The position numbers and the translations under genes were made by a program. DNA of 64,000 bases from the IMG/VR virus record IMGVR_UViG_2778261505_000002, one strand, 5' to 3'. The first letter of the stretch is position 1. Each line of letters begins with the position of its first letter. The DNA is from a virus (Duplodnaviria > Heunggongvirae > Uroviricota > Caudoviricetes). Positions 5,914 through 38,510 of this stretch are shown in pieces. Under the pieces are notes generated by a model that saw only the letters and a program-made list of their open reading frames with translations, was not told the DNA's origin and did no database searches.

Positions 5914-8900
5914 ATGTGGTACAGGGAAGGTACTATCACATTTACACAGGGCAGCAATACTCTGGTTGGGGCAGGGACAGCCTGGAACGTAACAGCTAAT
6001 GGTGTGTTGCCGGGGATGATCGTCATTGGCCCCGACAATAAGCTGTATGAGATCAAGCGCGTAACCAGTGATACGAACATTGTTCTCTCAGAACCTTATA
6101 CCGGCGAAACTCAGTCTGAAGTTCCGTGCCGAATCATTACGACCTATGAAGGCGACTTAACACAGTTTAGCGCGCGCTTTACTGCGCTAATGTCGCGTAT
6201 ATCGGCTGATTCCAAGTCCATACGCAGTTGGTTGACTGCGCTGGATGAGGTGACAATCGAGCGTGAAGACGGTACAGAAGTGACCGTTAAGCCGCTAATG
6301 CAGATCGTCAACGAGCACAACGAAAACGTTGAGTGGTATAAAAATAACACTGACGCGATTGATGCTGCTGGCGACAAAGCTCGTGAGGCGGCGGCCAGTG
6401 CTGCCGCAGCAGCAAAAAGCGCCAATGCCGCTGGAGAAAAAGCCTCTCAAGCGTCTCAAAGTGCATCCGCTGCGGCATCCTCACAAAGTGCCGCAAGTGC
6501 GAGTGCAACTGCTGCGAAAAAATCTGAAACGAATGCTGCAGCGTCACAAAAATCTGCAGCCACTTCTGCATCCACCGCGACCACGAAGGCGTCAGAAGCT
6601 GCCACCTCAGCCCGGGATGCGGCGGCCTCAAAAGAGGCAGCGAAATCATCAGAAACGAGCGCAGCCTCGAGCGCCAGTAATGCCGCTTCCTCGGCAACGG
6701 CGGCAGGAAATTCCGCGAAGGCGGCAAAAACGTCCGAGACGAACGCCAGGTCTTCTGAAACGGCAGCGGGACAGAGCGCCTCGGCTGCGGCAGGCTCAAA
6801 AACAGCGGCTGCGTCGTCTGCCAGTGCCGCGTCAACAAGTGCCGGGCAGGCCTCAGCCAGTGCCACCGCCGCCGGAAAATCGGCAGAAAGTGCCGCATCG
6901 TCTGCTTCAACTGCCACAACGAAGGCTGGCCAAGCCACTGAACAGGCCAGCGCAGCAGCGAGGTCTGCTTCCGCAGCGAAGACATCCGAAACGAACGCGA
7001 AAGCGTCGGAAACCCGTGCAGAATCCTCAAAAACGGCAGCCGCATCGTCCGCCAGTTCGGCGGCGTCATCGGCATCATCGGCGTCTGCTTCAAAAGATGA
7101 GGCGACCAGACAGGCGTCAGCAGCGAAGGGCAGCGCCACGACGGCATCCACGAAAGCAACAGAGGCGGCAGGCAGTGCGACGGCAGCATCTCAGAGCAAA
7201 ACTGCTGCTGAATCCGCTGCGACCCGTGCGGAAGCTGCTGCTGATCGTGCTGAAGAGATTGCCGGTGCAGTTGCGATGGAAGACGCAAGCCTTACAACTA
7301 AAGGTGTTGTGAAACTTAGCAGTGCTGTCGACAGCACCAGTGAATCGCTGGCCGCAACGCCAAAAGCAGTTAAAGCAGCCAATGACAATGCGAATAGCAG
7401 GGTGCCATCTAACCGAAAAGTTAACGGTAAAGCACTGACTGCGGATATCAAATTAACGCCGAAAGATATTGGTACTTTAAATTCAGTAACGATGTCTTTC
7501 TCTGGCGGGGCAGGGTGGTTCAAACTGGCTACGGTTACCATGCCACAAGCGAGTTCCATCGTTTACATCGCATTGATTGGTGGCGCTGGTTACAACGTCG
7601 GCTCCCCACATCAGGCAGGCATTTCAGAACTGGTTCTACGAGCAGGCAATGGAAACCCCAAAGGGATTACAGGTGCTTTGTGGAAGCGTACAGCTGTCGG
7701 ATTAACGAATTTCGCCTGGATCAACACATCCGGCGATACATATGATATTTACGTTGAGATTGGCAATTATGCGACTCGTGTAAATATCCATTGGGATTGT
7801 ACTGCAAATGCGACAGTTTCTATTTATACCTCGCCAACATATTCAGCGAGTAAGCCTTCCAGCGTTACCGATGGTGTTGTTTATACGATGTATAGCACAC
7901 ATCAGAAACCGACGCCGTTAGATATTGGAGCACTGCCAACAACCGGAGGAACAGTTTCAGGTCCGTTGTCTGTTACAGGTGGATTAACTGGTTCATTGAA
8001 TGGTAATGCAAGTACAGCCACGAAATTGCAGACGGCAAGATCTATCGGTGGAGTTGTTTTCGACGGTTCTGCAAATATTAACCTTCCAGGTGTAAACACT
8101 ACGGGTAATCAGAACACCACTGGTAATGCTGCAACTGCTACAAAACTTCAGACGGCAAGAACTATCGGCGGCGTGAGCTTTGATGGTACTGCGAATATTA
8201 ATTTGCCAGGTGTTAATACGACTGGTAATCAGAACACAACGGGCAACGCGGCTACTGCTACGAAGTTGCAGACTGCGCGTACTATCAATGGGGTGTCGTT
8301 TGACGGCTCGGCAAATATTGCCTTGTCGCCAGCAAATATAGGTTGCCCGGCATCTCCTACTGGTTGGTTAACTACAGGAAGTAATGGAGGAGCAATAACG
8401 ACAGCCCAGTTAGTTACTTTGTTGCAAAATAACGGGGCATTCAGTACGAAAGCATGGATCGCTCGTTGTGCATGGGCGTATGCGAATAGTGCATCCATAC
8501 CAGACAGTGAAACTGGTTGTGGCATTATTCCACTGGCGGGTGCTGTGATAGAAGTATTCAGCAATAATACCAACAATTACACCATTCGAATAACAACGGC
8601 CACTACGACAAATGTCTCTGGTGCACTCACTAATGCGGAGTTTATCTATGTGTCTAATGGCTCAAGTTATTCACCTGGATGGCGCAGAGCGTATAACACT
8701 AGAAACAAACCAACAGCTTCTGATGTAGGAGCATTACCGCTTTCAGGTGGCACATTATCTGGAGGGTTAACGTCTTCTGGTGAGATCGTTTCAAAATATG
8801 CAAATGGTTTCCGCATTGCTTACGGTAACTTTGGGTTCTTTATCCGTAATGATGGGGCGAACACATATTTCCTGCTAACAGCATCAGGAGACACATTAGG

Positions 8901-10065
8901 TTCATGGAACGGTTTGCGACCTATTACAATTAATAATACCAGCGGTGCTGTATCAATTGGTAATGGACTAAATGTGACTGGTGGCGTAAATGGTAGTTTG
9001 AACGGTAATGCTTCAACAGCTACGAAGTTGCAAACAGCGAGAAACATCAATGGTGTTAAGTTTGATGGTTCAGGCGATATCAATATTAATACATTGGTAT
9101 CTCGTGGCCGAGTTACGGCGTTAAGCGGCTCTACTCAAGGCACTGCTGGCATTCAAATGTATGAGGTGTACAACAATAGCTACCCGACCACGTATGGCAA
9201 CGTATTGCACATGAAAGGTGCGAGTGCTGCTGGTGAGGGCGAGTTGCTTATTGGCTGGAGTGGTACGAGCGGTGCACATGCGCCGGTTTTCATTCGCTCC
9301 CGAAGAGATTACACAGGTGCGGCATGGTCAGCGTGGGCGCAGGTATATACATCAAGGGACTCCATTCCTGGTGTGAATGCCACTGGTAATCAGAACACTA
9401 CTGGTAATGCCGCAACCGCCACAAAATTGCAGACAGCAAGGAAAATTGCTGGTGTGGCGTTTGATGGCTCTGCCGATATAACTTTGACTGCGGCTAACCT
9501 TAATGCTTACACGAAAACAGAGGTAGCAAACCTTCTAAGTTCCTATGCAAGCAGATCATCACTGACAGGCTATAGTGGCAACCTGGATATTGTTGCTGAA
9601 ACACTGGTTGTCAAATCAGGCGGTAGTGGAGGGTTTGCTATATGGGATATTGGCACAACTACTAGCGGTGCCAATATGTACATTGATCCAAACCCAGGTA
9701 TCAATACAGTTTGGCGTTCAACGTCTTCAAGGCGCTATAAAAAGGATATTGAAACATTACAAGATCGATATGCTGATGAACTTTTGTCATTAAGACCTGT
9801 TTGGTATCGTTCAATTTGTCGAGGTGACCGAAAGGATTGGGGGTATTACGGCCTTATTGCTGAAGAGGTTGGTGAGATTGCCCCGCAATATGTCCATTGG
9901 CGTGAACCAACAAATAATGATTCTCCAGAAGATATTTCCTCAAATGGTATGGTCGCTGAAGGAGTGATGTATGAGCGTTTGGTTGTACCACTCATTCATC
10001 ATATTCAGCAATTGACCAAAAGGGTTGAGGAGCTTGAAACGAAGTTAAATTCACCTAAAGAATAA
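5914..10065 (+). CDS. Tail fibre protein with C-terminal intramolecular chaperone (peptidase S74-like) domain
   Basis: 1383 aa; Ala/Ser-rich repeats (SETNA...); repeated NTTGNAATATKLQTARxIGGVxFDGxANI modules; C-terminal segment (YKKDIETL...GLIAEEV...ELETKLN) typical of the auto-cleaving chaperone domain of endosialidase/T5 pb1-type fibres. Confidence 0.8.
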   Translation: MWYREGTITFTQGSNTLVGAGTAWNVTANGVLPGMIVIGPDNKLYEIKRVTSDTNIVLSEPYTGETQSEVPCRIITTYEGDLTQFSARFTALMSRISADSKSIRSWLTALDEVTIEREDGTEVTVKPLMQIVNEHNENVEWYKNNTDAIDAAGDKAREAAASAAAAAKSANAAGEKASQASQSASAAASSQSAASASATAAKKSETNAAASQKSAATSASTATTKASEAATSARDAAASKEAAKSSETSAASSASNAASSATAAGNSAKAAKTSETNARSSETAAGQSASAAAGSKTAAASSASAASTSAGQASASATAAGKSAESAASSASTATTKAGQATEQASAAARSASAAKTSETNAKASETRAESSKTAAASSASSAASSASSASASKDEATRQASAAKGSATTASTKATEAAGSATAASQSKTAAESAATRAEAAADRAEEIAGAVAMEDASLTTKGVVKLSSAVDSTSESLAATPKAVKAANDNANSRVPSNRKVNGKALTADIKLTPKDIGTLNSVTMSFSGGAGWFKLATVTMPQASSIVYIALIGGAGYNVGSPHQAGISELVLRAGNGNPKGITGALWKRTAVGLTNFAWINTSGDTYDIYVEIGNYATRVNIHWDCTANATVSIYTSPTYSASKPSSVTDGVVYTMYSTHQKPTPLDIGALPTTGGTVSGPLSVTGGLTGSLNGNASTATKLQTARSIGGVVFDGSANINLPGVNTTGNQNTTGNAATATKLQTARTIGGVSFDGTANINLPGVNTTGNQNTTGNAATATKLQTARTINGVSFDGSANIALSPANIGCPASPTGWLTTGSNGGAITTAQLVTLLQNNGAFSTKAWIARCAWAYANSASIPDSETGCGIIPLAGAVIEVFSNNTNNYTIRITTATTTNVSGALTNAEFIYVSNGSSYSPGWRRAYNTRNKPTASDVGALPLSGGTLSGGLTSSGEIVSKYANGFRIAYGNFGFFIRNDGANTYFLLTASGDTLGSWNGLRPITINNTSGAVSIGNGLNVTGGVNGSLNGNASTATKLQTARNINGVKFDGSGDININTLVSRGRVTALSGSTQGTAGIQMYEVYNNSYPTTYGNVLHMKGASAAGEGELLIGWSGTSGAHAPVFIRSRRDYTGAAWSAWAQVYTSRDSIPGVNATGNQNTTGNAATATKLQTARKIAGVAFDGSADITLTAANLNAYTKTEVANLLSSYASRSSLTGYSGNLDIVAETLVVKSGGSGGFAIWDIGTTTSGANMYIDPNPGINTVWRSTSSRRYKKDIETLQDRYADELLSLRPVWYRSICRGDRKDWGYYGLIAEEVGEIAPQYVHWREPTNNDSPEDISSNGMVAEGVMYERLVVPLIHHIQQLTKRVEELETKLNSPKE

Positions 10066-10125: not shown

Positions 10126-10380
10126 ATGAGCTATGGTGCACAGGTTTGGTCGCCATCAAGACAGGAGATGGTCAATGCGTTGGCCCCTGTTTATTACCTC
10201 GATTATTTTACTCCCTCTGGTTCAGGAAGTAGAACATATGAGGTTGAGGCGGGATTGGGAATCGACTATTACATAATGGACGTAACCAATGGAAAGTACA
10301 CAAGTCTTACGGTTTCTGGAAATACCATTTCGTGGTCTGGAGCTAGTGGTAATTTAAACATATTGGTTTTTCAAAAATAA
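10126..10380 (+). CDS. Hypothetical protein (tail-fibre-adjacent)
   Basis: ORF with upstream AAGGA RBS; no recognisable motif. Confidence 0.4.
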   Translation: MSYGAQVWSPSRQEMVNALAPVYYLDYFTPSGSGSRTYEVEAGLGIDYYIMDVTNGKYTSLTVSGNTISWSGASGNLNILVFQK

Positions 10381-10988
10381 TGTACGGAAGCAAGATATAT
10401 CGATCTGACGGGAAGGTCTGGATGTCTCCTTCTTTGTCTCCTATCGTTTTTCAGAGAAAGCAGGTTGTTTCTTTGTCCGGCGGAACAGAGTTTAACACCA
10501 AAATATCTCCAGATCGTTCACCGATTATTTTTGTTGCCTATTCGAAAGCTGTTTCATTAATAGCCAACAGAATAGTGCGTAACAACCAGGTGATTTACAG
10601 TTTCGGAGGTCAGGGTAGCGACTCTAGTGCCACGATATACGTATTTTCGAAAGGTATAGCCAAAAAAGAAACTTGGGGCATGAGTTTTTTCAATGCACAA
10701 GGGGAGGAAATCTATAATACGGCAAATATCCCACTTTCATTTACCTTTCTTAATAATACAGAGTGGAACAGCTCTGGAGGGCATGTTTTTGATTACCCTC
10801 CAGCGATAATCCCAACATATGCGAATGTGTTCGCTGTTCCAGTACCGGGCGGAGCCATGACAATGGTTTATGGATATGCGGCATATGGAAATACTGTTAG
10901 CTCGATATTCGTAAACCAACTTAATGGCGGCCATAGTTTTAGCGTAAATGGCAGAGTACCGGTAATAAATAGAAATCTGTATAACTGA
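10380..10988 (+). CDS. Hypothetical protein (tail-fibre-adjacent, possible fibre accessory or assembly protein)
   Basis: 202-aa ORF whose start abuts the upstream stop; Gly/Ser/Asn/Tyr-rich composition. Confidence 0.4.
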   Translation: MYGSKIYRSDGKVWMSPSLSPIVFQRKQVVSLSGGTEFNTKISPDRSPIIFVAYSKAVSLIANRIVRNNQVIYSFGGQGSDSSATIYVFSKGIAKKETWGMSFFNAQGEEIYNTANIPLSFTFLNNTEWNSSGGHVFDYPPAIIPTYANVFAVPVPGGAMTMVYGYAAYGNTVSSIFVNQLNGGHSFSVNGRVPVINRNLYN

Positions 10989-10995
10989 TGAGTAA

Positions 10996-11229
10996 ATGAT
11001 GAAAAGATTATTTCTAACAATAGCTGTTGTTCTCTCTCTTACTGGCTGCCAGAAATTGCCGACACCTATATGTTATGGTGAAGCTATCATTGGTGGACAG
11101 GAGACAGTCATACCCATATATGCTGTTAAAAAAGTGAACGACTATACCTTATACAAAGCGGGTAGCATCTATAACTGGCGATGGGTTGGAGTAGGTGCTT
11201 TCTCATCAATCGGTTGCAATGCTGAATGA
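10996..11229 (+). CDS. Small lipoprotein; candidate Cor/Llp-like superinfection-exclusion protein
   Basis: Signal peptide with lipobox (LSLTG|C); 77 aa; located immediately downstream of the tail fibre genes. Confidence 0.5.
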   Translation: MMKRLFLTIAVVLSLTGCQKLPTPICYGEAIIGGQETVIPIYAVKKVNDYTLYKAGSIYNWRWVGVGAFSSIGCNAE

Positions 11230-11298: not shown

Positions 11299-11634
11299 AT
11301 GGAGGAAAACATGTCGAACGAGATGGCGGGCGTTACAACAGAGCAAGTTGAGCGTATTGCCGCGATCGTTGCTCGGGAGGTTGTTGGCAAATTAGGTAAA
11401 GAGCTACGTGAAGAAATTGGCCAGGAGGTCAATGATCAGCTGAAAACCTACTTTGGTGATATGACCCCGGCGCAACATAGTATTCAACACTCCAATCTGG
11501 ACAAACTCCTTAACCGGTTAGATTCCATCTCAAGTGGGTTCTTTGGCGGCATTGTTTCTAAAATAACGTCGTTCATTATTACCGCACTGCTTTTGGGGTT
11601 AGCCGCGTATGGCGTAAAAAGTGGACTGCAATAA
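11299..11634 (+). CDS. Hypothetical membrane protein; candidate holin
   Basis: 111 aa, soluble N-terminal part and one C-terminal TM helix; first gene of the putative lysis cassette. Confidence 0.35.
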   Translation: MEENMSNEMAGVTTEQVERIAAIVAREVVGKLGKELREEIGQEVNDQLKTYFGDMTPAQHSIQHSNLDKLLNRLDSISSGFFGGIVSKITSFIITALLLGLAAYGVKSGLQ

Positions 11635-11647
11635 CAGGAGATCAAGG

Positions 11648-12340
11648 ATGAAGACTCCGAGAGGCATTCGTAATAATAACCCCGGTAATCTTGATAAAGG
11701 ATCACCGTGGCAAGGTCTGGTTGCGAATCCAGACGAACCGCGCTTTTGCACGTTTAAAGACCCTGTTTGGGGGATTCGTGCGCTGGCGGTGACTCTAATT
11801 ACCTACCACGACAAACGTCGCGCAAAAGACGGCTCAAGTATCGATACCATTCGTGAAGTTATTGAACGTTGGGCACCGCCGAATGAAAACAATACTGACG
11901 CCTACATTAATGAGGTGTCTAAAGCCGTTGGTGTAACCGCAGACATGATCATCGATCTGCATGATTACGACATCCTTCGACCTTTGGTTGAGGCAATCAT
12001 TCGCCACGAGAATGGCCGAGGCCCGCTAAAAACGCTGAACACCTGGTATGCGGCAGAAGTTATTGAGGAAGGTCTGCGTCGAGCTGGCGTTGTTAAGCCG
12101 GTGAAAACCGTGAAGGCTGTTCCTGTAACTAAAGAAACCGCAGGCGCAACTGTTACAGCAGGTATTGGTCTGGCGCAGCTGGCCGATGTTATGCCGCAGG
12201 TTTCCGCTGCTATGGATAAAGCACAAGGTCATATCTCTAGCGGGGATACAGTACGCATCATCTTCGGTATTGCCACTATTGTTGTGGCAGGATTCATTGC
12301 CTGGTCGCAGGTAAGAAAACACCAGAAAGGGATGGTCTAA
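11648..12340 (+). CDS. Hypothetical protein with C-terminal TM anchor; candidate endolysin by position only
   Basis: Start chosen at the ATG preceded by AGGAG (the track ORF begins 27 nt earlier at 11621); conserved-looking N-terminal RNNNPGN motif; lies between the holin candidate and Rz/Rz1. Confidence 0.4.
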   Translation: MKTPRGIRNNNPGNLDKGSPWQGLVANPDEPRFCTFKDPVWGIRALAVTLITYHDKRRAKDGSSIDTIREVIERWAPPNENNTDAYINEVSKAVGVTADMIIDLHDYDILRPLVEAIIRHENGRGPLKTLNTWYAAEVIEEGLRRAGVVKPVKTVKAVPVTKETAGATVTAGIGLAQLADVMPQVSAAMDKAQGHISSGDTVRIIFGIATIVVAGFIAWSQVRKHQKGMV

Positions 12341-12341
12341 T

Positions 12342-12593
12342 ATGCTAGGCAGCCTGATGACAAAGCTAAAAGTTGCTTTGATTACGCTGGCTGCCGTTCT
12401 TTTCGTTCTTGTCGGCGCTTACACGATGGGCGGGAATGCGGCGCGACGAGCAATGGAAGAGAAGGCAAAACAGGAAGACAGAAAACGACTTCAAAGCACA
12501 GTGGAAGTGGTGAATGAGACGAGCAATAAAATACGTCAGAAAGATGCTTCTGCCGTTCATCGTGAGTTGTATGATAAGTGGGTGCGTCATTAA
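12342..12593 (+). CDS. i-spanin (Rz-like)
   Basis: N-terminal TM helix followed by a charged coiled-coil region; a +1-frame lipoprotein ORF overlaps its 3' end. Confidence 0.7.
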   Translation: MLGSLMTKLKVALITLAAVLFVLVGAYTMGGNAARRAMEEKAKQEDRKRLQSTVEVVNETSNKIRQKDASAVHRELYDKWVRH

Positions 12594-12729
12594 ACCACAA
12601 ACCGCCAGCGTATTGTTCTGCGATGGAGCTGGGCCTATCTATATCAGCAATAATGATGTGATGACCGAAGAAACCGAACGCCAAATCCTTTTTCACAATA
12701 CGATGGGAGAGAGAGTTTGCGGTTGGTGA
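12544..12729 (+). CDS. o-spanin (Rz1-like outer-membrane lipoprotein)
   Basis: Lipobox (MISG|C) in an ORF overlapping the 3' end of the Rz-like gene in another frame; start set at the internal Met before the signal peptide (track ORF begins at 12514). Confidence 0.65.
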   Translation: MLLPFIVSCMISGCVIKPQTASVLFCDGAGPIYISNNDVMTEETERQILFHNTMGERVCGW

Positions 12730-12738
12730 TGCGAAGTT

Positions 12739-12754
12739 CCCCTCACTTGAGGGG
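12739..12754. terminator. Hairpin between convergent genes (candidate bidirectional terminator)
   Basis: CCCCTC-ACTT-GAGGGG stem-loop between the Rz1 stop and the stop of the minus-strand GNAT gene. Confidence 0.4.
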
Positions 12755-12760
12755 AGTACA

Positions 12761-13282
12761 TTATTCTTCGAACAATTTTTCGATAGATTTTGTAGGATAG
12801 AACAAAGAACGCTCGTTGTTACCAACCAGCTGGATAAAGTCTAAACTTTTATAAAACGCCTTGGCTTTGTCATTTAACGCCTCAACGAAAAGTCCATGAA
12901 TGCCTACAGCAAGAGATGCATTGTACACAACGCGCATTGCATGTGTTACAAGCATTGAGCCAAATCCTTGACCTTGAAGGGACTTGTCCAAAGCCAGCCT
13001 ACCCAAAGTAACACTTGGAACATTCCGATAAGGTACCTTCTTTTGCTGGCTTCTTGAAGGTAAGGACTCCTTTTCAAAGCAGCTACCTGACAAAGTGTAA
13101 TACCCTAACACTTTTGGTCTGCCTTCTTTCGTGCAAAGCACATAAGCGCGAAGAATTTTTCCCTCATGCTGCCTTTTTAAGTGGTTGGTTAAAAAGGCAT
13201 TTAGTGATTCTTCACCGCAATCAAAACCATTCAAATCATAATCTTTCTCTCCAGAGAAAATTTCTATCTTTATATTATCCAC
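12761..13282 (-). CDS. GNAT-family acetyltransferase toxin (TacT/AtaT/KacT-like)
   Basis: GNAT fold motifs (QGQGFGSML, acetyl-CoA binding region); 173 aa; immediately downstream of a DUF1778-type RHH antitoxin gene. Confidence 0.8.
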   Translation of the reverse strand: MDNIKIEIFSGEKDYDLNGFDCGEESLNAFLTNHLKRQHEGKILRAYVLCTKEGRPKVLGYYTLSGSCFEKESLPSRSQQKKVPYRNVPSVTLGRLALDKSLQGQGFGSMLVTHAMRVVYNASLAVGIHGLFVEALNDKAKAFYKSLDFIQLVGNNERSLFYPTKSIEKLFEE

Positions 13283-13289
13283 GAGTAAA

Positions 13290-13559
13290 CTACTCCATGC
13301 TTTTCAGACGATCAGCAGCTCGTTTCAGCTTGTCGTTCGGTGCCGGAGGATTGCTTATAGCGTCCATAACCAGATTCCAGGATTCTTCATTCAGAACTAG
13401 TCTACGGTGTTGCTCTATAACTTTCACGGCACGTTCAGATGCACTGCTAACCATAAACTGAGTAATGCTCTGGTTAGACATTGCGGCAGCTTCCTCGATG
13501 ATGCTTTTATCGTCATCGGTTAATCTCAAATCGATGCGCTGCTTTTTTAGTGCTGACAT
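13290..13559 (-). CDS. RHH antitoxin (TacA/DUF1778-like) of the GNAT toxin
   Basis: About 90 aa; start set at the ATG preceded by AGGAGG (track ORF extends to 13598); operonic with and upstream of the GNAT gene. Confidence 0.75.
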   Translation of the reverse strand: MSALKKQRIDLRLTDDDKSIIEEAAAMSNQSITQFMVSSASERAVKVIEQHRRLVLNEESWNLVMDAISNPPAPNDKLKRAADRLKSME

Positions 13560-13877
13560 GTATTCCTCCTGATGGCCGTGATGTAGGAAGGCCATCAATC
13601 TCCTCTGTTCAAACTGAGTTTTCGACTCAAAAATTACTTTAAAAGGCTATAGCCCATTACGTGTGCATTATCAAATTGTGTACGGCATATCACCGTACTT
13701 GTAATATAGAGGTCATTGTTACTTTTTTCAACAGACAAATACAAGCTATGTTTGCCAATTGTTAATCACAACCTACCATTTAACCTTTACACCGCAGCCG
13801 TAGGCATTTAGGCTATATCACATATAAGAAAACAAGTTGTTTCAGACGATAATTATATACGCAAAGGGAACTCTCCA

Positions 13878-14546
13878 ATGACCAAGATCTTTGTGGTTGG
13901 CGGCACAAAGGGCGGGCCTGGCAAATCCACCGTTGCCCAGCAAATTGCCGTTTGCCTGAAAGTCAAAAAGAAGAAGAAGGTTTATATTACCGATATAGAT
14001 ATTCAGCGCACGACAACGAGCTGGTGTGAAGACCGTCGACAGAACGAAGACCTTGAGCTGATTCCTTTTGCATACGTTCAGGATGACATCATTAAGCACC
14101 TAAAATCGCTTCAGGGTAGAGCTGAGTTTGTAGTGGTAGATGCTGGTGGCTTCGACTCCGAAATTCAGCGACAAGCGATGCTGATGGCTGACGTTATCAT
14201 TATCCCGCTGCGTCCTAAGCGTCGTGATTTGAAATCTTTACGTGACATCGATCCTATTATCGACAATGTTCGCAATGTAAACGATAAAGTGAAGGTCCGC
14301 GCGGTCATGAACCAGTGCCCGGCTTTGCCATCACAAGTGTCTCGCATTCTGGCGGCTAAAGAGATTGTTGAGACGTTTGGAATCGAGTCTGCGCCAGTCA
14401 ATCTATATAACCGCAACGTCTATGATGATGCGGAAGAGTCTGGTCGTTCTATCTTTGAAATGACCGGTAGCGAGCGCGACAAAAAGGCGGAAGCCGAGTT
14501 TGAAGAATTTGTAGATTATCTGTTGAGTCTGGAGGAAGAAGAATAA
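13878..14546 (+). CDS. parA: ParA-family partition ATPase
   Basis: Deviant Walker A (GGTKGGPGKST); 222 aa; followed by a small basic ParB/ParG-like gene whose start overlaps the parA stop. Confidence 0.85.
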   Translation: MTKIFVVGGTKGGPGKSTVAQQIAVCLKVKKKKKVYITDIDIQRTTTSWCEDRRQNEDLELIPFAYVQDDIIKHLKSLQGRAEFVVVDAGGFDSEIQRQAMLMADVIIIPLRPKRRDLKSLRDIDPIIDNVRNVNDKVKVRAVMNQCPALPSQVSRILAAKEIVETFGIESAPVNLYNRNVYDDAEESGRSIFEMTGSERDKKAEAEFEEFVDYLLSLEEEE

Positions 14547-36223: not shown

Positions 36224-37168
36224 GTGAATTATCTCTTCGTAGATGGCAATAGCCTGGGTTATTACCACCAACAATCTGACAAATTGCACAACGGCGAAAT
36301 GGAAGTACAGGCTGCTTTCGGCTTTGTTAAGAACGTCCGTCGTTATGCCTCCATCCTTCATGCCCGACCTATGATTCTTTGGGATGGATTTAGTGACAAG
36401 CGTCGCGACTTTTACCCGGACTACAAAGCAAATCGCGACGACGATCCTGATATGAAAAAGATGAAGGAAGGCTTTGCTATCCAGAAGCCATACATCCTCA
36501 AAATGATGACCGCGCTTGGAGTTACCCAACTCATTGCAAAAGATGCAGAAGCGGATGATCTGGCCGGGCTGCTGGTAGCCAGCATTGCACCGCAGCCAAT
36601 CGTTGAACACATCTATCTGTTAACAGGCGATAGCGACTGGCTTCAGTTAGTTCGCGAAAACGTAAGCTGGGTAAGCCTGCGCGAAGACGCCAAAAACAAG
36701 CAGGTTAATTTTGAGCAATTTGCGGAACTGACAGGATTCGCTACTCCTCGCGCATTTTTGGAAGCAAAAGCATTACAAGGCGATAACTCGGACAACATTA
36801 GCGGTGTTGGTGGCATTGGTGCTGGCGGTGCGAAAGAGCTGCTGCATGAATGGGGAAGTGTCGCAACGATGGTACGCGGCATCAACGACGGCTCAATCGT
36901 GGTTAATAAAGGGCGTCATAAGACCGCCTTCAACAAACTAGCGAAGAATGCCTTCAACGAGAAAACAGGCTGTCGAATGCTCGAAGCGTTCAAGAGAAAC
37001 ATCACGCTAATGAACCTGATTGAGACGAAGTTTCCGCCTACCGAAATCGAAACAATCAAAGGCAATCGTGACGTGAAAGCATTCGAGCAACTGTGCTACG
37101 AGCTGAATTTCCGTTCGTTCCTTGAAGACCTTGAAGTGTTTGTTCTTCCATTCGAAAGGTATTGCTAA
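36224..37168 (+). CDS. 5'-3' exonuclease / flap endonuclease (FEN, RNase H-like)
   Basis: LFVDGNSL, AKDAEADD and LLTGDSDWLQL acidic motifs; start set at GTG after GGAAGGAA RBS because the track ATG at 36173 lies inside the upstream terminator. Confidence 0.75.
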   Translation: MNYLFVDGNSLGYYHQQSDKLHNGEMEVQAAFGFVKNVRRYASILHARPMILWDGFSDKRRDFYPDYKANRDDDPDMKKMKEGFAIQKPYILKMMTALGVTQLIAKDAEADDLAGLLVASIAPQPIVEHIYLLTGDSDWLQLVRENVSWVSLREDAKNKQVNFEQFAELTGFATPRAFLEAKALQGDNSDNISGVGGIGAGGAKELLHEWGSVATMVRGINDGSIVVNKGRHKTAFNKLAKNAFNEKTGCRMLEAFKRNITLMNLIETKFPPTEIETIKGNRDVKAFEQLCYELNFRSFLEDLEVFVLPFERYC

Positions 37169-37434
37169 TGCTTAAATCGATTATCAATGGCGCTACAACC
37201 ACCCCTGCCCAACTGGCAAAAGAGATTGTCTTTTATCACGGTGAGTACGCTGTCATCGCACTGCCGTCAATTCTAGGCGCTGCCGGAATGAAAGCGACAG
37301 ATCGCGAGTTTGGATTAGTCAGCGAGCAGGTCGTAAAAATCCTCGCTCGTGTATCCAGACTCCTTAACCACGATGCGATTGTATTCGATGAATCCGCCGC
37401 TTTAAAACGAATCAACGAAACAAAAGGAGCCTGA
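37162..37434 (+). CDS. Hypothetical protein
   Basis: 90-aa ORF overlapping the FEN stop; AAAGGAG RBS precedes the following gene. Confidence 0.4.
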   Translation: MLMLKSIINGATTTPAQLAKEIVFYHGEYAVIALPSILGAAGMKATDREFGLVSEQVVKILARVSRLLNHDAIVFDESAALKRINETKGA

Positions 37435-37436
37435 TC

Positions 37437-38510
37437 ATGGCAAAAGGAAAATCCGCACTGGCACTTGCTCTGAAAAAGAAAATCGGTAGCAACGACGAAA
37501 TTCAGAAAGTAACTCATTGGATTGATACAGGCTTTCCACCGTTAAACAAAGCTATTTCTGGTCGTTACGATGGCGGCTTCCCATGTGGTCGTATCGTCGA
37601 AGTATTCGGTCCTCCAAGTGCAGGGAAAACGTTCCTTGCAACAGCAGCGATGATCTCCGCTCAAAAACAAGATGGTCTGGCGGTATTCCTCGATCATGAA
37701 AACAGTTTTGACGTTGGCCTGGCTGTCGCCAATGGCCTGAACGCAGATGAGGATGACGGTCAGTGGGTATACAAGCAGCCTGACACCTTCGAAGACTCTG
37801 TAGAGTTGATCGGCACAATACTTAAATTGGTACGTGATGAAGAGCTTATCCCTGAATCAGCACCTATCTGTATCGTGGCTGACTCACTTGCGTCTATGGT
37901 TCCGAACTCCAAAGCCGAGAAGTTCGAAAAGATGGCTGAAGGCACTGCCAAAGACAAAGATCAGCTAAACATGAACGACAATACGGCACTGGCTCGTGCG
38001 ACAAGTGCGAACTTCCCTACTCTGGCTTTGTGGGCACGCAAATACAACGCCTGCATCATCTTCTTGAATCAGGTTCGCACAAAAATCGGTGTAATGTTTG
38101 GCGACCCTACTACGTCGCCAGGTGGAGATTCACCGAAGTTCTACGCTTCTGTACGTATCCGTCTTGGTGCATCGGTGATGAAGGATGGTAAAGAGAAGAT
38201 CGGCCAGGACGTAGGCGCAGAATGCATCAAAAACAAAGTTGCACCACCGTATGGCAAATGCACCTGGAAATTCTACTTCGATCCTACTCGTGGCCTCGAC
38301 GTTATCGAATCGCTCGTCGAGTACATGCTGGAAGAAGGATACCTGCCAAAGAACGCCAGCGGGCGAGTTGAAATTGGTGACAAGAAATACACCAAATCAC
38401 AGATCGTCGAGATGTATCGGGAGAAGCCACTGGCTGAAATCATTGCGGCTTTGCAGGCAATCGACGACCGAAGAGCAAAAGACAACCCCACCGAGTCAGT
38501 AGAAGAGTAA
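37437..38510 (+). CDS. RecA/UvsX-like recombinase
   Basis: Walker A (FGPPSAGKT), Walker B-like IIFLNQVR, and RecA-signature GGDSPKFYASVRIRL. Confidence 0.8.
   Translation: MAKGKSALALALKKKIGSNDEIQKVTHWIDTGFPPLNKAISGRYDGGFPCGRIVEVFGPPSAGKTFLATAAMISAQKQDGLAVFLDHENSFDVGLAVANGLNADEDDGQWVYKQPDTFEDSVELIGTILKLVRDEELIPESAPICIVADSLASMVPNSKAEKFEKMAEGTAKDKDQLNMNDNTALARATSANFPTLALWARKYNACIIFLNQVRTKIGVMFGDPTTSPGGDSPKFYASVRIRLGASVMKDGKEKIGQDVGAECIKNKVAPPYGKCTWKFYFDPTRGLDVIESLVEYMLEEGYLPKNASGRVEIGDKKYTKSQIVEMYREKPLAEIIAALQAIDDRRAKDNPTESVEE

Follow-up and report, generated by a model that had tools for sequence, protein, structure and literature searches.

We analyzed a 64,000-nucleotide stretch of viral DNA (IMG/VR record IMGVR_UViG_2778261505_000002, Caudoviricetes), referred to below as the window, and focused on positions 11299-12729, in which an earlier note, made from the letters alone, had described a lysis cassette with an unconventional endolysin candidate. 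The designation as a lysis cassette proved right: the region holds four open reading frames (ORFs) on the plus strand, a set of co-directional genes between 11311 and 12729 that encode, in this order, a 107-aa protein, an endolysin, Rz and Rz1. All four have counterparts among the PHROGs, with the 107-aa protein matching phrog_5093 (E 2e-68), the 230-aa endolysin matching phrog_873 (annotated as 'endolysin'; E 3e-88), Rz matching phrog_1026 ('Rz-like spanin'; E 9e-25) and Rz1 matching phrog_1275 (E 2e-24). Scans of the four proteins against Pfam and NCBIfam gave nothing above threshold. The genes, and a hairpin that follows them, are listed here (TM, transmembrane):

11311-11634, plus strand: 107-aa protein of phrog_5093, first gene of the cassette; 'putative holin' in SSU5 and Cyrano, a function that is predicted only
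11648-12340, plus strand: predicted Enc34/M4Lys-type endolysin, 230 aa; match to 7Q47, phrog_873, conserved W75, Y86 and E121
12342-12593, plus strand: Rz (i-spanin), 83 aa; N-terminal TM helix at residues ~8-30, phrog_1026
12514-12729, plus strand: Rz1 (o-spanin), 71-aa precursor; +1 frame, 80-nt overlap with Rz, phrog_1275
12736-12757, no strand assigned: GC-rich hairpin GTTCCCCTCACTTGAGGGGAGT, directly 3' of Rz1 and facing a convergent toxin gene; terminator-like site

At the DNA level, the cassette shares 98.6% identity with that of Escherichia phage Cyrano, a phage-plasmid found in E. coli LF82, and about 82% with that of Salmonella phage SSU5; the records of both phages already annotate the four genes as holin, endolysin, Rz and Rz1. 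It is also widespread on plasmids, being present (at a coverage of at least 80%) in 382 plasmids of PLSDB and in 236 of 5426 complete E. coli genomes, where it is always borne on plasmids of ~110 kb. Considering the PHROG E-values, the identity to Cyrano and this wide occurrence on plasmids, the four ORFs are real genes and not chance reading frames. On the strength of these matches, we assign the region to an SSU5/Cyrano-like phage-plasmid of Enterobacteriaceae, as its late lysis cassette. In the plasmids and genomes just mentioned, the NCBI pipeline (RefSeq/PGAP, the Prokaryotic Genome Annotation Pipeline) names every gene of the cassette 'hypothetical protein', an annotation gap that extends over some 400 plasmids and roughly 4% of the complete genomes of E. 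coli.

The endolysin and its catalytic domain

We placed the start of the endolysin gene at the ATG at 11648, which is preceded by AGGAG; the GTG that opens the ORF at 11621 has no Shine-Dalgarno (SD) sequence. The product comprises an all-helical glycosidase domain of the PHA02564 type (residues ~1-150), a linker rich in Lys, Val and Thr (~150-162) and the C-terminal membrane module that is described in the next section. When the PDB was searched with phmmer, the best match was the phage Enc34 endolysin's catalytic domain (7Q47_A, E 2.6e-54, residues 3-151 of the query against 6-168 of the chain), and next came a T7-like internal core protein, matched at its N-terminus (9VVP Gp29, E 5.6e-22). 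An AlphaFold2 (AF2) model, built from 38 homologs, is helical, with a predicted local distance difference test (pLDDT) score above 85 over residues 21-150, and its top match in Foldseek is again the Enc34 domain (7Q47_B, E 3.9e-16, target-normalised TM-score 0.83, 59% identity), beyond which 9VVP is the sole significant match in the PDB. In the alignment with 7Q47, residues W79, Y95 and E131 of Enc34 fall on W75, Y86 and E121 of the window protein. These three residues are invariant among the 38 homologs, and so is the core (G6, R8, N11-N14) of the RNNNPGN motif, which spans residues 8-14 and had been pointed out correctly in the earlier note. Over its full length, including the TM domain (TMD), the protein is 55% identical to gp38 of phage Chi and 94% identical to SSU5_027, the ortholog that the RefSeq record of SSU5 names 'endolysin'.

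The work on Enc34 gives these matches a biochemical meaning. Glu131, Trp79 and Tyr95 form the conserved catalytic signature of the Enc34 endolysin, which is common to glycosidases of the families GH73 and GH23; its fold is an all-helical relative of the alpha-lobe of lysozyme; and the truncated enzyme degrades the murein of permeabilised E. coli, P. aeruginosa and Hafnia, while the full-length form is toxic (PMC8943055). From the sequence and model comparisons taken together, we conclude that the 230-aa protein is an endolysin of the Enc34/M4Lys type, with a predicted all-helical domain that resembles the lysozyme alpha-lobe as in 7Q47. Going by its characterized relatives, the enzyme most likely cuts the glycan strand, as an N-acetylglucosaminidase.

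This endolysin family is already known: it was flagged in 2019 (Siskin, PMC6498227), muralytic activity and self-sufficient lysis were reported in 2020 (M4Lys, PMC7143992), and a structure followed in 2022 (Enc34, PDB 7Q47, Cernooka et al., PMC8943055). Structure, measured activity and lysis phenotype are thus all published, and orthologs are annotated. The earlier note had suggested a membrane-tethered or a novel-fold muralytic enzyme, and it was the first of these that fitted, in view of the C-terminal anchor and the match to Enc34/M4Lys-type proteins, whereas the AF2/Foldseek and phmmer matches to 7Q47 left no room for a novel fold. Its remark that no glycosidase or amidase motif could be recognised holds in so far as the protein matches neither a Pfam or NCBIfam model, which is the reason why no familiar motif was seen, nor a classical lysozyme or amidase family; the Glu/Trp/Tyr signature of a glycosidase is, however, present. 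The PHA02564 catalytic domain has no model in Pfam or NCBIfam despite its crystal structure. Of the two observations by which the note would have been refuted, neither was made. Muralytic activity has been measured for homologs with 55-59% identity (PMC8943055, PMC7143992); as for a canonical endolysin elsewhere in the genome, the complete annotation of SSU5 contains no other endolysin, and tblastn searches with Peptidase_M15_3, a T4-type lysozyme, two SLT-like endolysins and Mu gp22 found nothing in the window or in SSU5. In the same search space, the PHA02564-type catalytic domain occurs once.

The C-terminal membrane module

The module consists of a weakly hydrophobic, amphipathic helix rich in Gly, Ala and Thr (residues ~164-190, mean Kyte-Doolittle (KD) hydropathy 0.8), a strongly hydrophobic TM helix (~199-221, KD 2.07) and a basic tail, VRKHQKGMV, with a charge of +3. 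The single C-terminal TM helix seen in the earlier note corresponds to the strong one of these, while the authors of the Enc34 and Siskin studies count two helices. The N-terminus (MKTPRGIRNNN) is hydrophilic, contains the catalytic-domain motif and has no signal or signal-anchor-release (SAR) sequence; with its hydrophobic segments at the C-terminal end, the protein does not qualify as a SAR endolysin. Across the 38 homologs, which reach down to 56% identity, P159, T161, A167, G174, Q177, A188, S198 and Q221 are invariant, a degree of conservation that is unusually strong for a membrane anchor. On average, the first helix in the family consists for 52% of Gly, Ala, Ser and Thr, has a mean hydropathy of 0.87 and contains a conserved acidic residue and a Pro; the TM helix has a mean hydropathy of 1.8, the loop is neutral to acidic, and the net charge of the tail averages +2.2. 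The combination of a weak, SAR-like helix with a true TM helix and a basic tail presumably resembles a two-helix holin or pinholin.

The holin-like tail of M4Lys was remarked on by the authors who described that protein in phage BSPM4. In their experiments, M4Lys alone lysed E. coli within 20-60 min, and azide did not block this lysis; lysis was lost when the TMD or the last 13 residues were deleted, the TMD alone was bacteriostatic, and the soluble domain freed N-acetylglucosamine from muropeptides (PMC7143992). By analogy, we infer that the full-length enzyme of the window can lyse with neither a separate holin nor azide-sensitive Sec export. Since the TM helix and the last ~13 residues are essential in homologs, the C-terminal module would supply the membrane-lesion or access role that is normally the holin's.

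The first gene of the cassette

The ORF of the first gene opens at 11299 and would encode 111 aa, the length given in the earlier note. An SD sequence (GGAGGA) lies within its first four codons, directly 5' of an ATG at 11311, and the probable product is therefore the 107-aa protein encoded by 11311-11634; the annotations of SSU5 and Cyrano give this same length, and the phrog_5093 profile is equally long. The C-terminal TM helix that the note had assigned to this protein was confirmed, as was the position of its gene where a holin would be expected; the holin role itself is a positional guess that our comparative data make uncertain. The protein consists of an anionic, helical N-terminal domain, a YFGDMxPxxHxxQHxR motif and the TM helix, its sole hydrophobic stretch (residues ~77-102, KD maximum 2.0), after which a five-residue tail, KSGLQ, remains. 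In AF2 it forms two long helices (10-48 and 53-105) with a hinge at the GDMTP turn (pLDDT 91); a Foldseek search of this model against the PDB returned coiled-coil matches only, which are without meaning and have E-values above 3 throughout.

Relatives of the 107-aa protein were collected by a word-index search, which gave 30 close ones, and by an exhaustive HMMER search over 1.8 billion representatives, which gave 57, all of ~95-140 aa. Among deposited phages, only SSU5-like phage-plasmids carry the protein (12 records). In an alignment of 43 sequences, all of which match phrog_5093 only, G49, H56 and H60 never vary, and A21, R62 and D71 hardly do. The motif to which the two His belong, at i and i+4, sits just before a TM helix that is itself poorly conserved. 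Such a juxtamembrane pattern, which is unusual for a holin, suggests a site for binding a metal or a partner or for sensing pH. The N-terminal domain has a net charge of zero or below in all members (mean -3), and the C-terminal tail, of 2-14 residues, has about one positive charge. With ~+1.1 net on the tail and ~+0.2 on the N-terminal flank, the positive-inside rule leaves the topology unsettled.

Like holins, the 107-aa protein is a small membrane protein encoded beside an endolysin; it has no charged hydrophilic C-terminal domain, its tail being just KSGLQ. No described holin family was found for it in Pfam or the PHROGs when the 43 members were scanned, NCBIfam gave sub-threshold noise, and phrog_5093 itself, which carries the label 'unknown function', is no curated family. 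The 'holin' is therefore the least secure annotation of the cassette. Three specific ideas about the protein were rejected. A dual-start holin/antiholin motif (Met1/Met5) is not conserved, as the Xenorhabdus homolog starts with MANEVGK; homology to the releasin of phage Mu, gp25, is contradicted by an hhalign probability of 0.2% and the absence of a match to PF10805; and homology to Chi gp37 by the absence of a BLASTP match and an hhalign probability below 1%. A releasin is recognised by a DUF2730 signature and a TMD at its N-terminal end; the TMD of the 107-aa protein is C-terminal.

Gene neighbourhoods of the two families

For the distant relatives of the 107-aa protein, the neighbourhood evidence comes from about nine independent metagenomic loci, and in every locus with readable downstream sequence a lysis cassette begins with the phrog_5093 member. 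In L007/8/9 and L010/11 the next gene downstream encodes a soluble Peptidase_M15_3 endolysin, and in L017/18 a soluble Phage_lysozyme; L014 and L019 have, after the phrog_5093 gene, a small protein with three TMDs that matches holin phrog_8226 and then a phrog_669 endolysin; and L016 has a protein that matches the holin family phrog_1528 and Pfam Holin_2-3, again with an endolysin behind it. All of these cassettes, and the short contigs L013 and L015 as well, encode a further small protein with two to three hydrophobic segments, and three of these separate multi-TMD neighbours match holin PHROGs. By its sequence context, phrog_5093 is clearly a lysis-cassette component that is exchanged between unrelated endolysins. 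The SSU5-type cassette is the exception in this set, in that, besides the 107-aa protein, nothing in it is membrane-active except the C-terminal module of the endolysin itself.

Seen from the side of the endolysin, Enc34-type enzymes occur in three upstream contexts. The first is Chi gp37, a protein with an N-terminal TM helix. The second is phrog_5093, found in SSU5, in Cyrano and in a Xenorhabdus element of 102 kb (L021, where it matches the profile of 43 sequences with E 1.5e-33). In the third, no membrane protein is encoded upstream: the preceding gene encodes a soluble protein of 453 aa in Aeromonas phage BUCT551 and a non-TM protein of 85 aa in a Pasteurella element. In both BUCT551 (L004, 1077-3444) and the Pasteurella element (L022, 2231-3432), an Rz-like gene lies directly downstream of the endolysin. 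Chi gp37 (L003, 2150-2488), which in Chi-like phages is the putative holin, or 'lysis protein B', combines its N-terminal TM helix with a C-terminal coiled coil. RefSeq labels it 'Rz-like spanin', probably a mis-annotation; the true Rz/Rz1 pair of Chi is gp39/gp40.

Interpretation and alternatives

We consider the region best explained as an SSU5/Cyrano-like lysis cassette with an Enc34/M4Lys-type endolysin that has a membrane-active C-terminal module and, possibly, with a regulator in the form of the 107-aa protein (probability about 0.85). In the mechanism that we propose, the helical catalytic domain, joined by the basic linker to the conserved membrane module, would degrade the peptidoglycan once that module has provided a membrane lesion or access, such that the endolysin could lyse without a separate holin. 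The 107-aa protein would set or modulate the timing of lysis, either as a partner or regulator of the membrane-active module or as a single-TMD holin, and after degradation of the peptidoglycan Rz and Rz1 would disrupt the outer membrane. Given the roughly nine loci and the behaviour of M4Lys, a timing factor of the antiholin, partner or releasin kind appears at least as likely as a hole-former, because relatives of the 107-aa protein nearly always accompany a separate multi-TMD protein and because Enc34-type endolysins function, and occur, without the 107-aa protein.

Several points weigh against this explanation. The activity, bond specificity and holin independence of the endolysin are extrapolated from proteins that are 55-59% identical, and the literature on the lysis genes of SSU5 and Cyrano yielded no experiments, the Cyrano paper making no mention of a holin, endolysin or spanin. 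Lysis by M4Lys was seen under strong over-expression, and the Enc34 authors warn of a possible artefact of expression level (PMC8943055). The topology of the module is disputed, with two helices and an N-in/C-in arrangement in Siskin (PMC6498227) against one helix and N-out/C-in in M4Lys (PMC7143992), and AF2 models it poorly (pLDDT below 50 for residues 161-198). Finally, the neighbourhood evidence for the 107-aa protein comes from about nine loci in which several of the multi-TMD neighbours have no family assignment, and the co-occurrence is also compatible with the 107-aa protein being the holin and its neighbour the antiholin.

For the 230-aa protein, we weighed two other identities. It could be a virion-associated peptidoglycan hydrolase that serves DNA injection: the PHA02564 domain is named 'virion protein' in NCBI CDD, and it occurs in T7-like internal core proteins (9VVP Gp29, with the E-value given above, and matches in Kayfunavirus) as well as in tape-measure and tail proteins (phrog_2276 and phrog_7182). 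We regard this as very improbable, considering that the gene lies outside the structural module, between a small membrane protein and Rz/Rz1, that it encodes a stand-alone protein with a conserved TM helix, which virion lysins do not have, that the SSU5 annotation and the tblastn searches offer no alternative endolysin, and that proteins of the same architecture lyse from within. That the protein might be a muralytic enzyme of genuinely new fold, unlike anything characterized, can be practically dismissed, since a 59%-identical domain has been available in the PDB as a crystal structure from 2021 on (7Q47) and both its activity and its catalytic signature are published.

The more serious contender concerns the division of labour between the two membrane proteins, and we give it somewhat less than even odds. 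It holds that the system is canonical, with the 107-aa protein as a true single-TMD holin and the endolysin helix as a mere tether until triggered, a C-terminal analogue of the SAR endolysin and pinholin pair. Its gene is in the holin position, directly 5' of the endolysin, and its relatives precede three unrelated types of endolysin, which is the classic pattern of a holin; the records of SSU5, Cyrano and pJN2-26 call it a holin; the SSU5-type cassette has no other small membrane protein; and a pinholin-like scenario was proposed by the Enc34 authors for their own cassette (PMC8943055). Yet the 107-aa protein matches no curated holin family in Pfam, NCBIfam or the PHROGs and lacks the charged C-terminal tail typical of holins (five residues remain); its family is conserved in a soluble juxtamembrane motif and not in the TM helix; its distant relatives are accompanied by small multi-TMD proteins that are encoded separately, and of these three match holin PHROGs; and M4Lys lyses without a partner, just as Enc34-type endolysins occur without an upstream membrane protein. 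Within our preferred explanation, of an endolysin with its own membrane-active module, a more specific and rather speculative proposal, which we think unlikely in its full form, is that phrog_5093 represents a new kind of lysis regulator and not a holin: a single-pass helical hairpin that acts as a functional mirror image of the Mu releasin, or as an antiholin, and whose conserved juxtamembrane motif, with its invariant HxxxH, senses or gates a membrane-active partner. If this were true, the partner would be the multi-TMD holin in most cassettes and the holin-like C-terminal module of the endolysin in the SSU5 type, which would then be a 'holin-less' cassette whose endolysin carries its own hole-forming domain.

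Spanins and surroundings of the cassette

The Rz and Rz1 genes had been called correctly in the earlier note. Rz has a periplasmic part of ~53 aa, a short charged helical domain with no Cys. Rz1 has a basic n-region and an ISGC lipobox (Cys24), and its Val at +2 indicates sorting to the outer membrane; an alternative start is the ATG at 12544. The mature protein, of 48 aa, ends in ERVCGW and contains two Cys besides the lipid-modified one. Rz is 78% identical to SSU5_028 and marginally similar to its Chi counterpart, while Rz1 is 51% identical to Chi gp40. This agrees with SpaninDataBase, in which SSU5 has an overlapped two-component spanin with the i-spanin in a singleton family and the o-spanin in the Chi family (PMC6139136). 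By these comparisons, Rz/Rz1 of the window is an overlapped two-component spanin with an o-spanin of the Chi family, and is ordinary in kind. For Rz1, the call in the note is better than that in the Cyrano record, where the coding sequence (L001 7383-7502, 39 aa) starts at an internal GTG past the lipobox. Since Cyrano retains the complete 71-aa ORF, signal peptide and lipobox included, the short form is an annotation error and not biology.

The cassette is flanked by a tail-fibre/cor module on one side and, on the other, by a convergent pair of a GNAT toxin and its antitoxin, followed by parA. The same layout of lysis cassette, TacT/TacA and ParA is found in the Xenorhabdus element, in which genes for proteins of 107 aa and 218 aa, without family match, are inserted between the endolysin and Rz. 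The hairpin at 12736-12757 probably closes the cassette as a terminator, to go by its sequence; in the terminator scan it is a consensus match only, with one site found against 2.2 expected in shuffles. A scan for sigma-70 promoters found none ahead of the cassette. The toxin, a KacT/TacT-like GNAT acetyltransferase of 173 aa (12761-13282, minus strand), converges on the lysis cassette; its antitoxin (102 aa) lies at 13290-13598 on the minus strand and parA at 13878-14546. The hairpin is shared by the toxin/antitoxin pair and Rz1.

Upstream, three small genes occupy 10126-11229, between the tail fibre and the cassette, and encode a phrog_557 'outer membrane protein', a phrog_425 'membrane associated protein' and, as the third, a superinfection-exclusion lipoprotein of the Cor type (77 aa, lipobox LTGC). 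This cor module is kept in SSU5 and is not at this position in Cyrano, which marks a mosaic joint. The tail-fibre protein itself (1383 aa, 5914-10065) consists for 61% of Ala and Ser over residues 150-470 and has three copies of an ATATKLQTAR motif; several long antisense ORFs cross the low-complexity part of its gene. Peptidase_S74 is recorded for a 1588-aa protein upstream in the Xenorhabdus element, and the C-terminus of the window's tail fibre seems similar. In SSU5, a gene elsewhere (SSU5_101, SSU5 36898-37596) is annotated as 'lysozyme inhibitor LprI family protein'.

Comparison with known systems

The closest relatives of the whole cassette are SSU5_026-030, with identities of 95% for the holin candidate, 94% for the endolysin, 78% for Rz and 74% for Rz1, and CYRAN_22-25 of Cyrano, where the orthologous cassette lacks the cor module that precedes it here and in SSU5. 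Among characterized systems, ORF39 of Hafnia phage Enc34 (PDB 7Q47) has the PHA02564 domain (~59% identity), the helical fold and the Glu/Trp/Tyr signature in common with the window endolysin, as well as the C-terminal amphipathic and TM helices and, downstream, overlapped Rz/Rz1 genes with a Chi-family o-spanin (PMC8943055). The two differ in the catalytic domain, where two short insertions of Enc34 (following PPN and HENG) are missing from the window endolysin, and in their upstream genes, which are unrelated: the TM helix of Enc34 ORF38 is N-terminal, and that of the 107-aa protein C-terminal. The host elements differ as well, a 110-kb phage-plasmid here and a 60-kb, Chi-like virulent siphovirus in the case of Enc34. 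M4Lys of Salmonella phage BSPM4, Chi gp38 and the Siskin endolysin have the same architecture, and the basic tail that is essential in M4Lys is kept in the window (PMC7143992, PMC6498227); again the partner gene differs, as Chi gp37 and BSPM4 ORF_37 are unlike the 107-aa protein. With GH73/GH23 glycosidases and lytic transglycosylases such as TM0633, phiKZ gp144 and MltC, the enzymes have in common, according to PMC8943055, where the catalytic Glu and the aromatic Trp/Tyr pair lie in space on a core like the lysozyme alpha-lobe; no similarity is detectable in sequence, the helices follow in a permuted order and the beta-lobe is absent.

The protein most like the 107-aa protein in design is the Mu releasin gp25 (DUF2730; Chamblee et al. 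2022, PMC9239132): both have ~100 aa, one TM helix, an anionic helical soluble domain of ~75 aa and almost nothing on the far side of the membrane, and both belong to cassettes without a classical holin. They are mirror images of each other, the TM helix of gp25 being N-terminal, and the likeness would be one of mechanism only; gp25 acts on endolysins with an N-terminal SAR sequence (PMC9239132). With the endolysin family known, the remaining interest lies in the 107-aa protein and in the way in which the family is exported. Next to the same endolysin, the SSU5-type cassette has an upstream protein that is wholly different from that of Chi-like phages, and since Cyrano and SSU5 are inducible and tractable in E. 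coli and Salmonella, they offer a natural comparison with the Chi-like phages, one that bears on how an N-terminal catalytic domain with only a C-terminal helix gains access to the cell wall, and on the role of the upstream gene.

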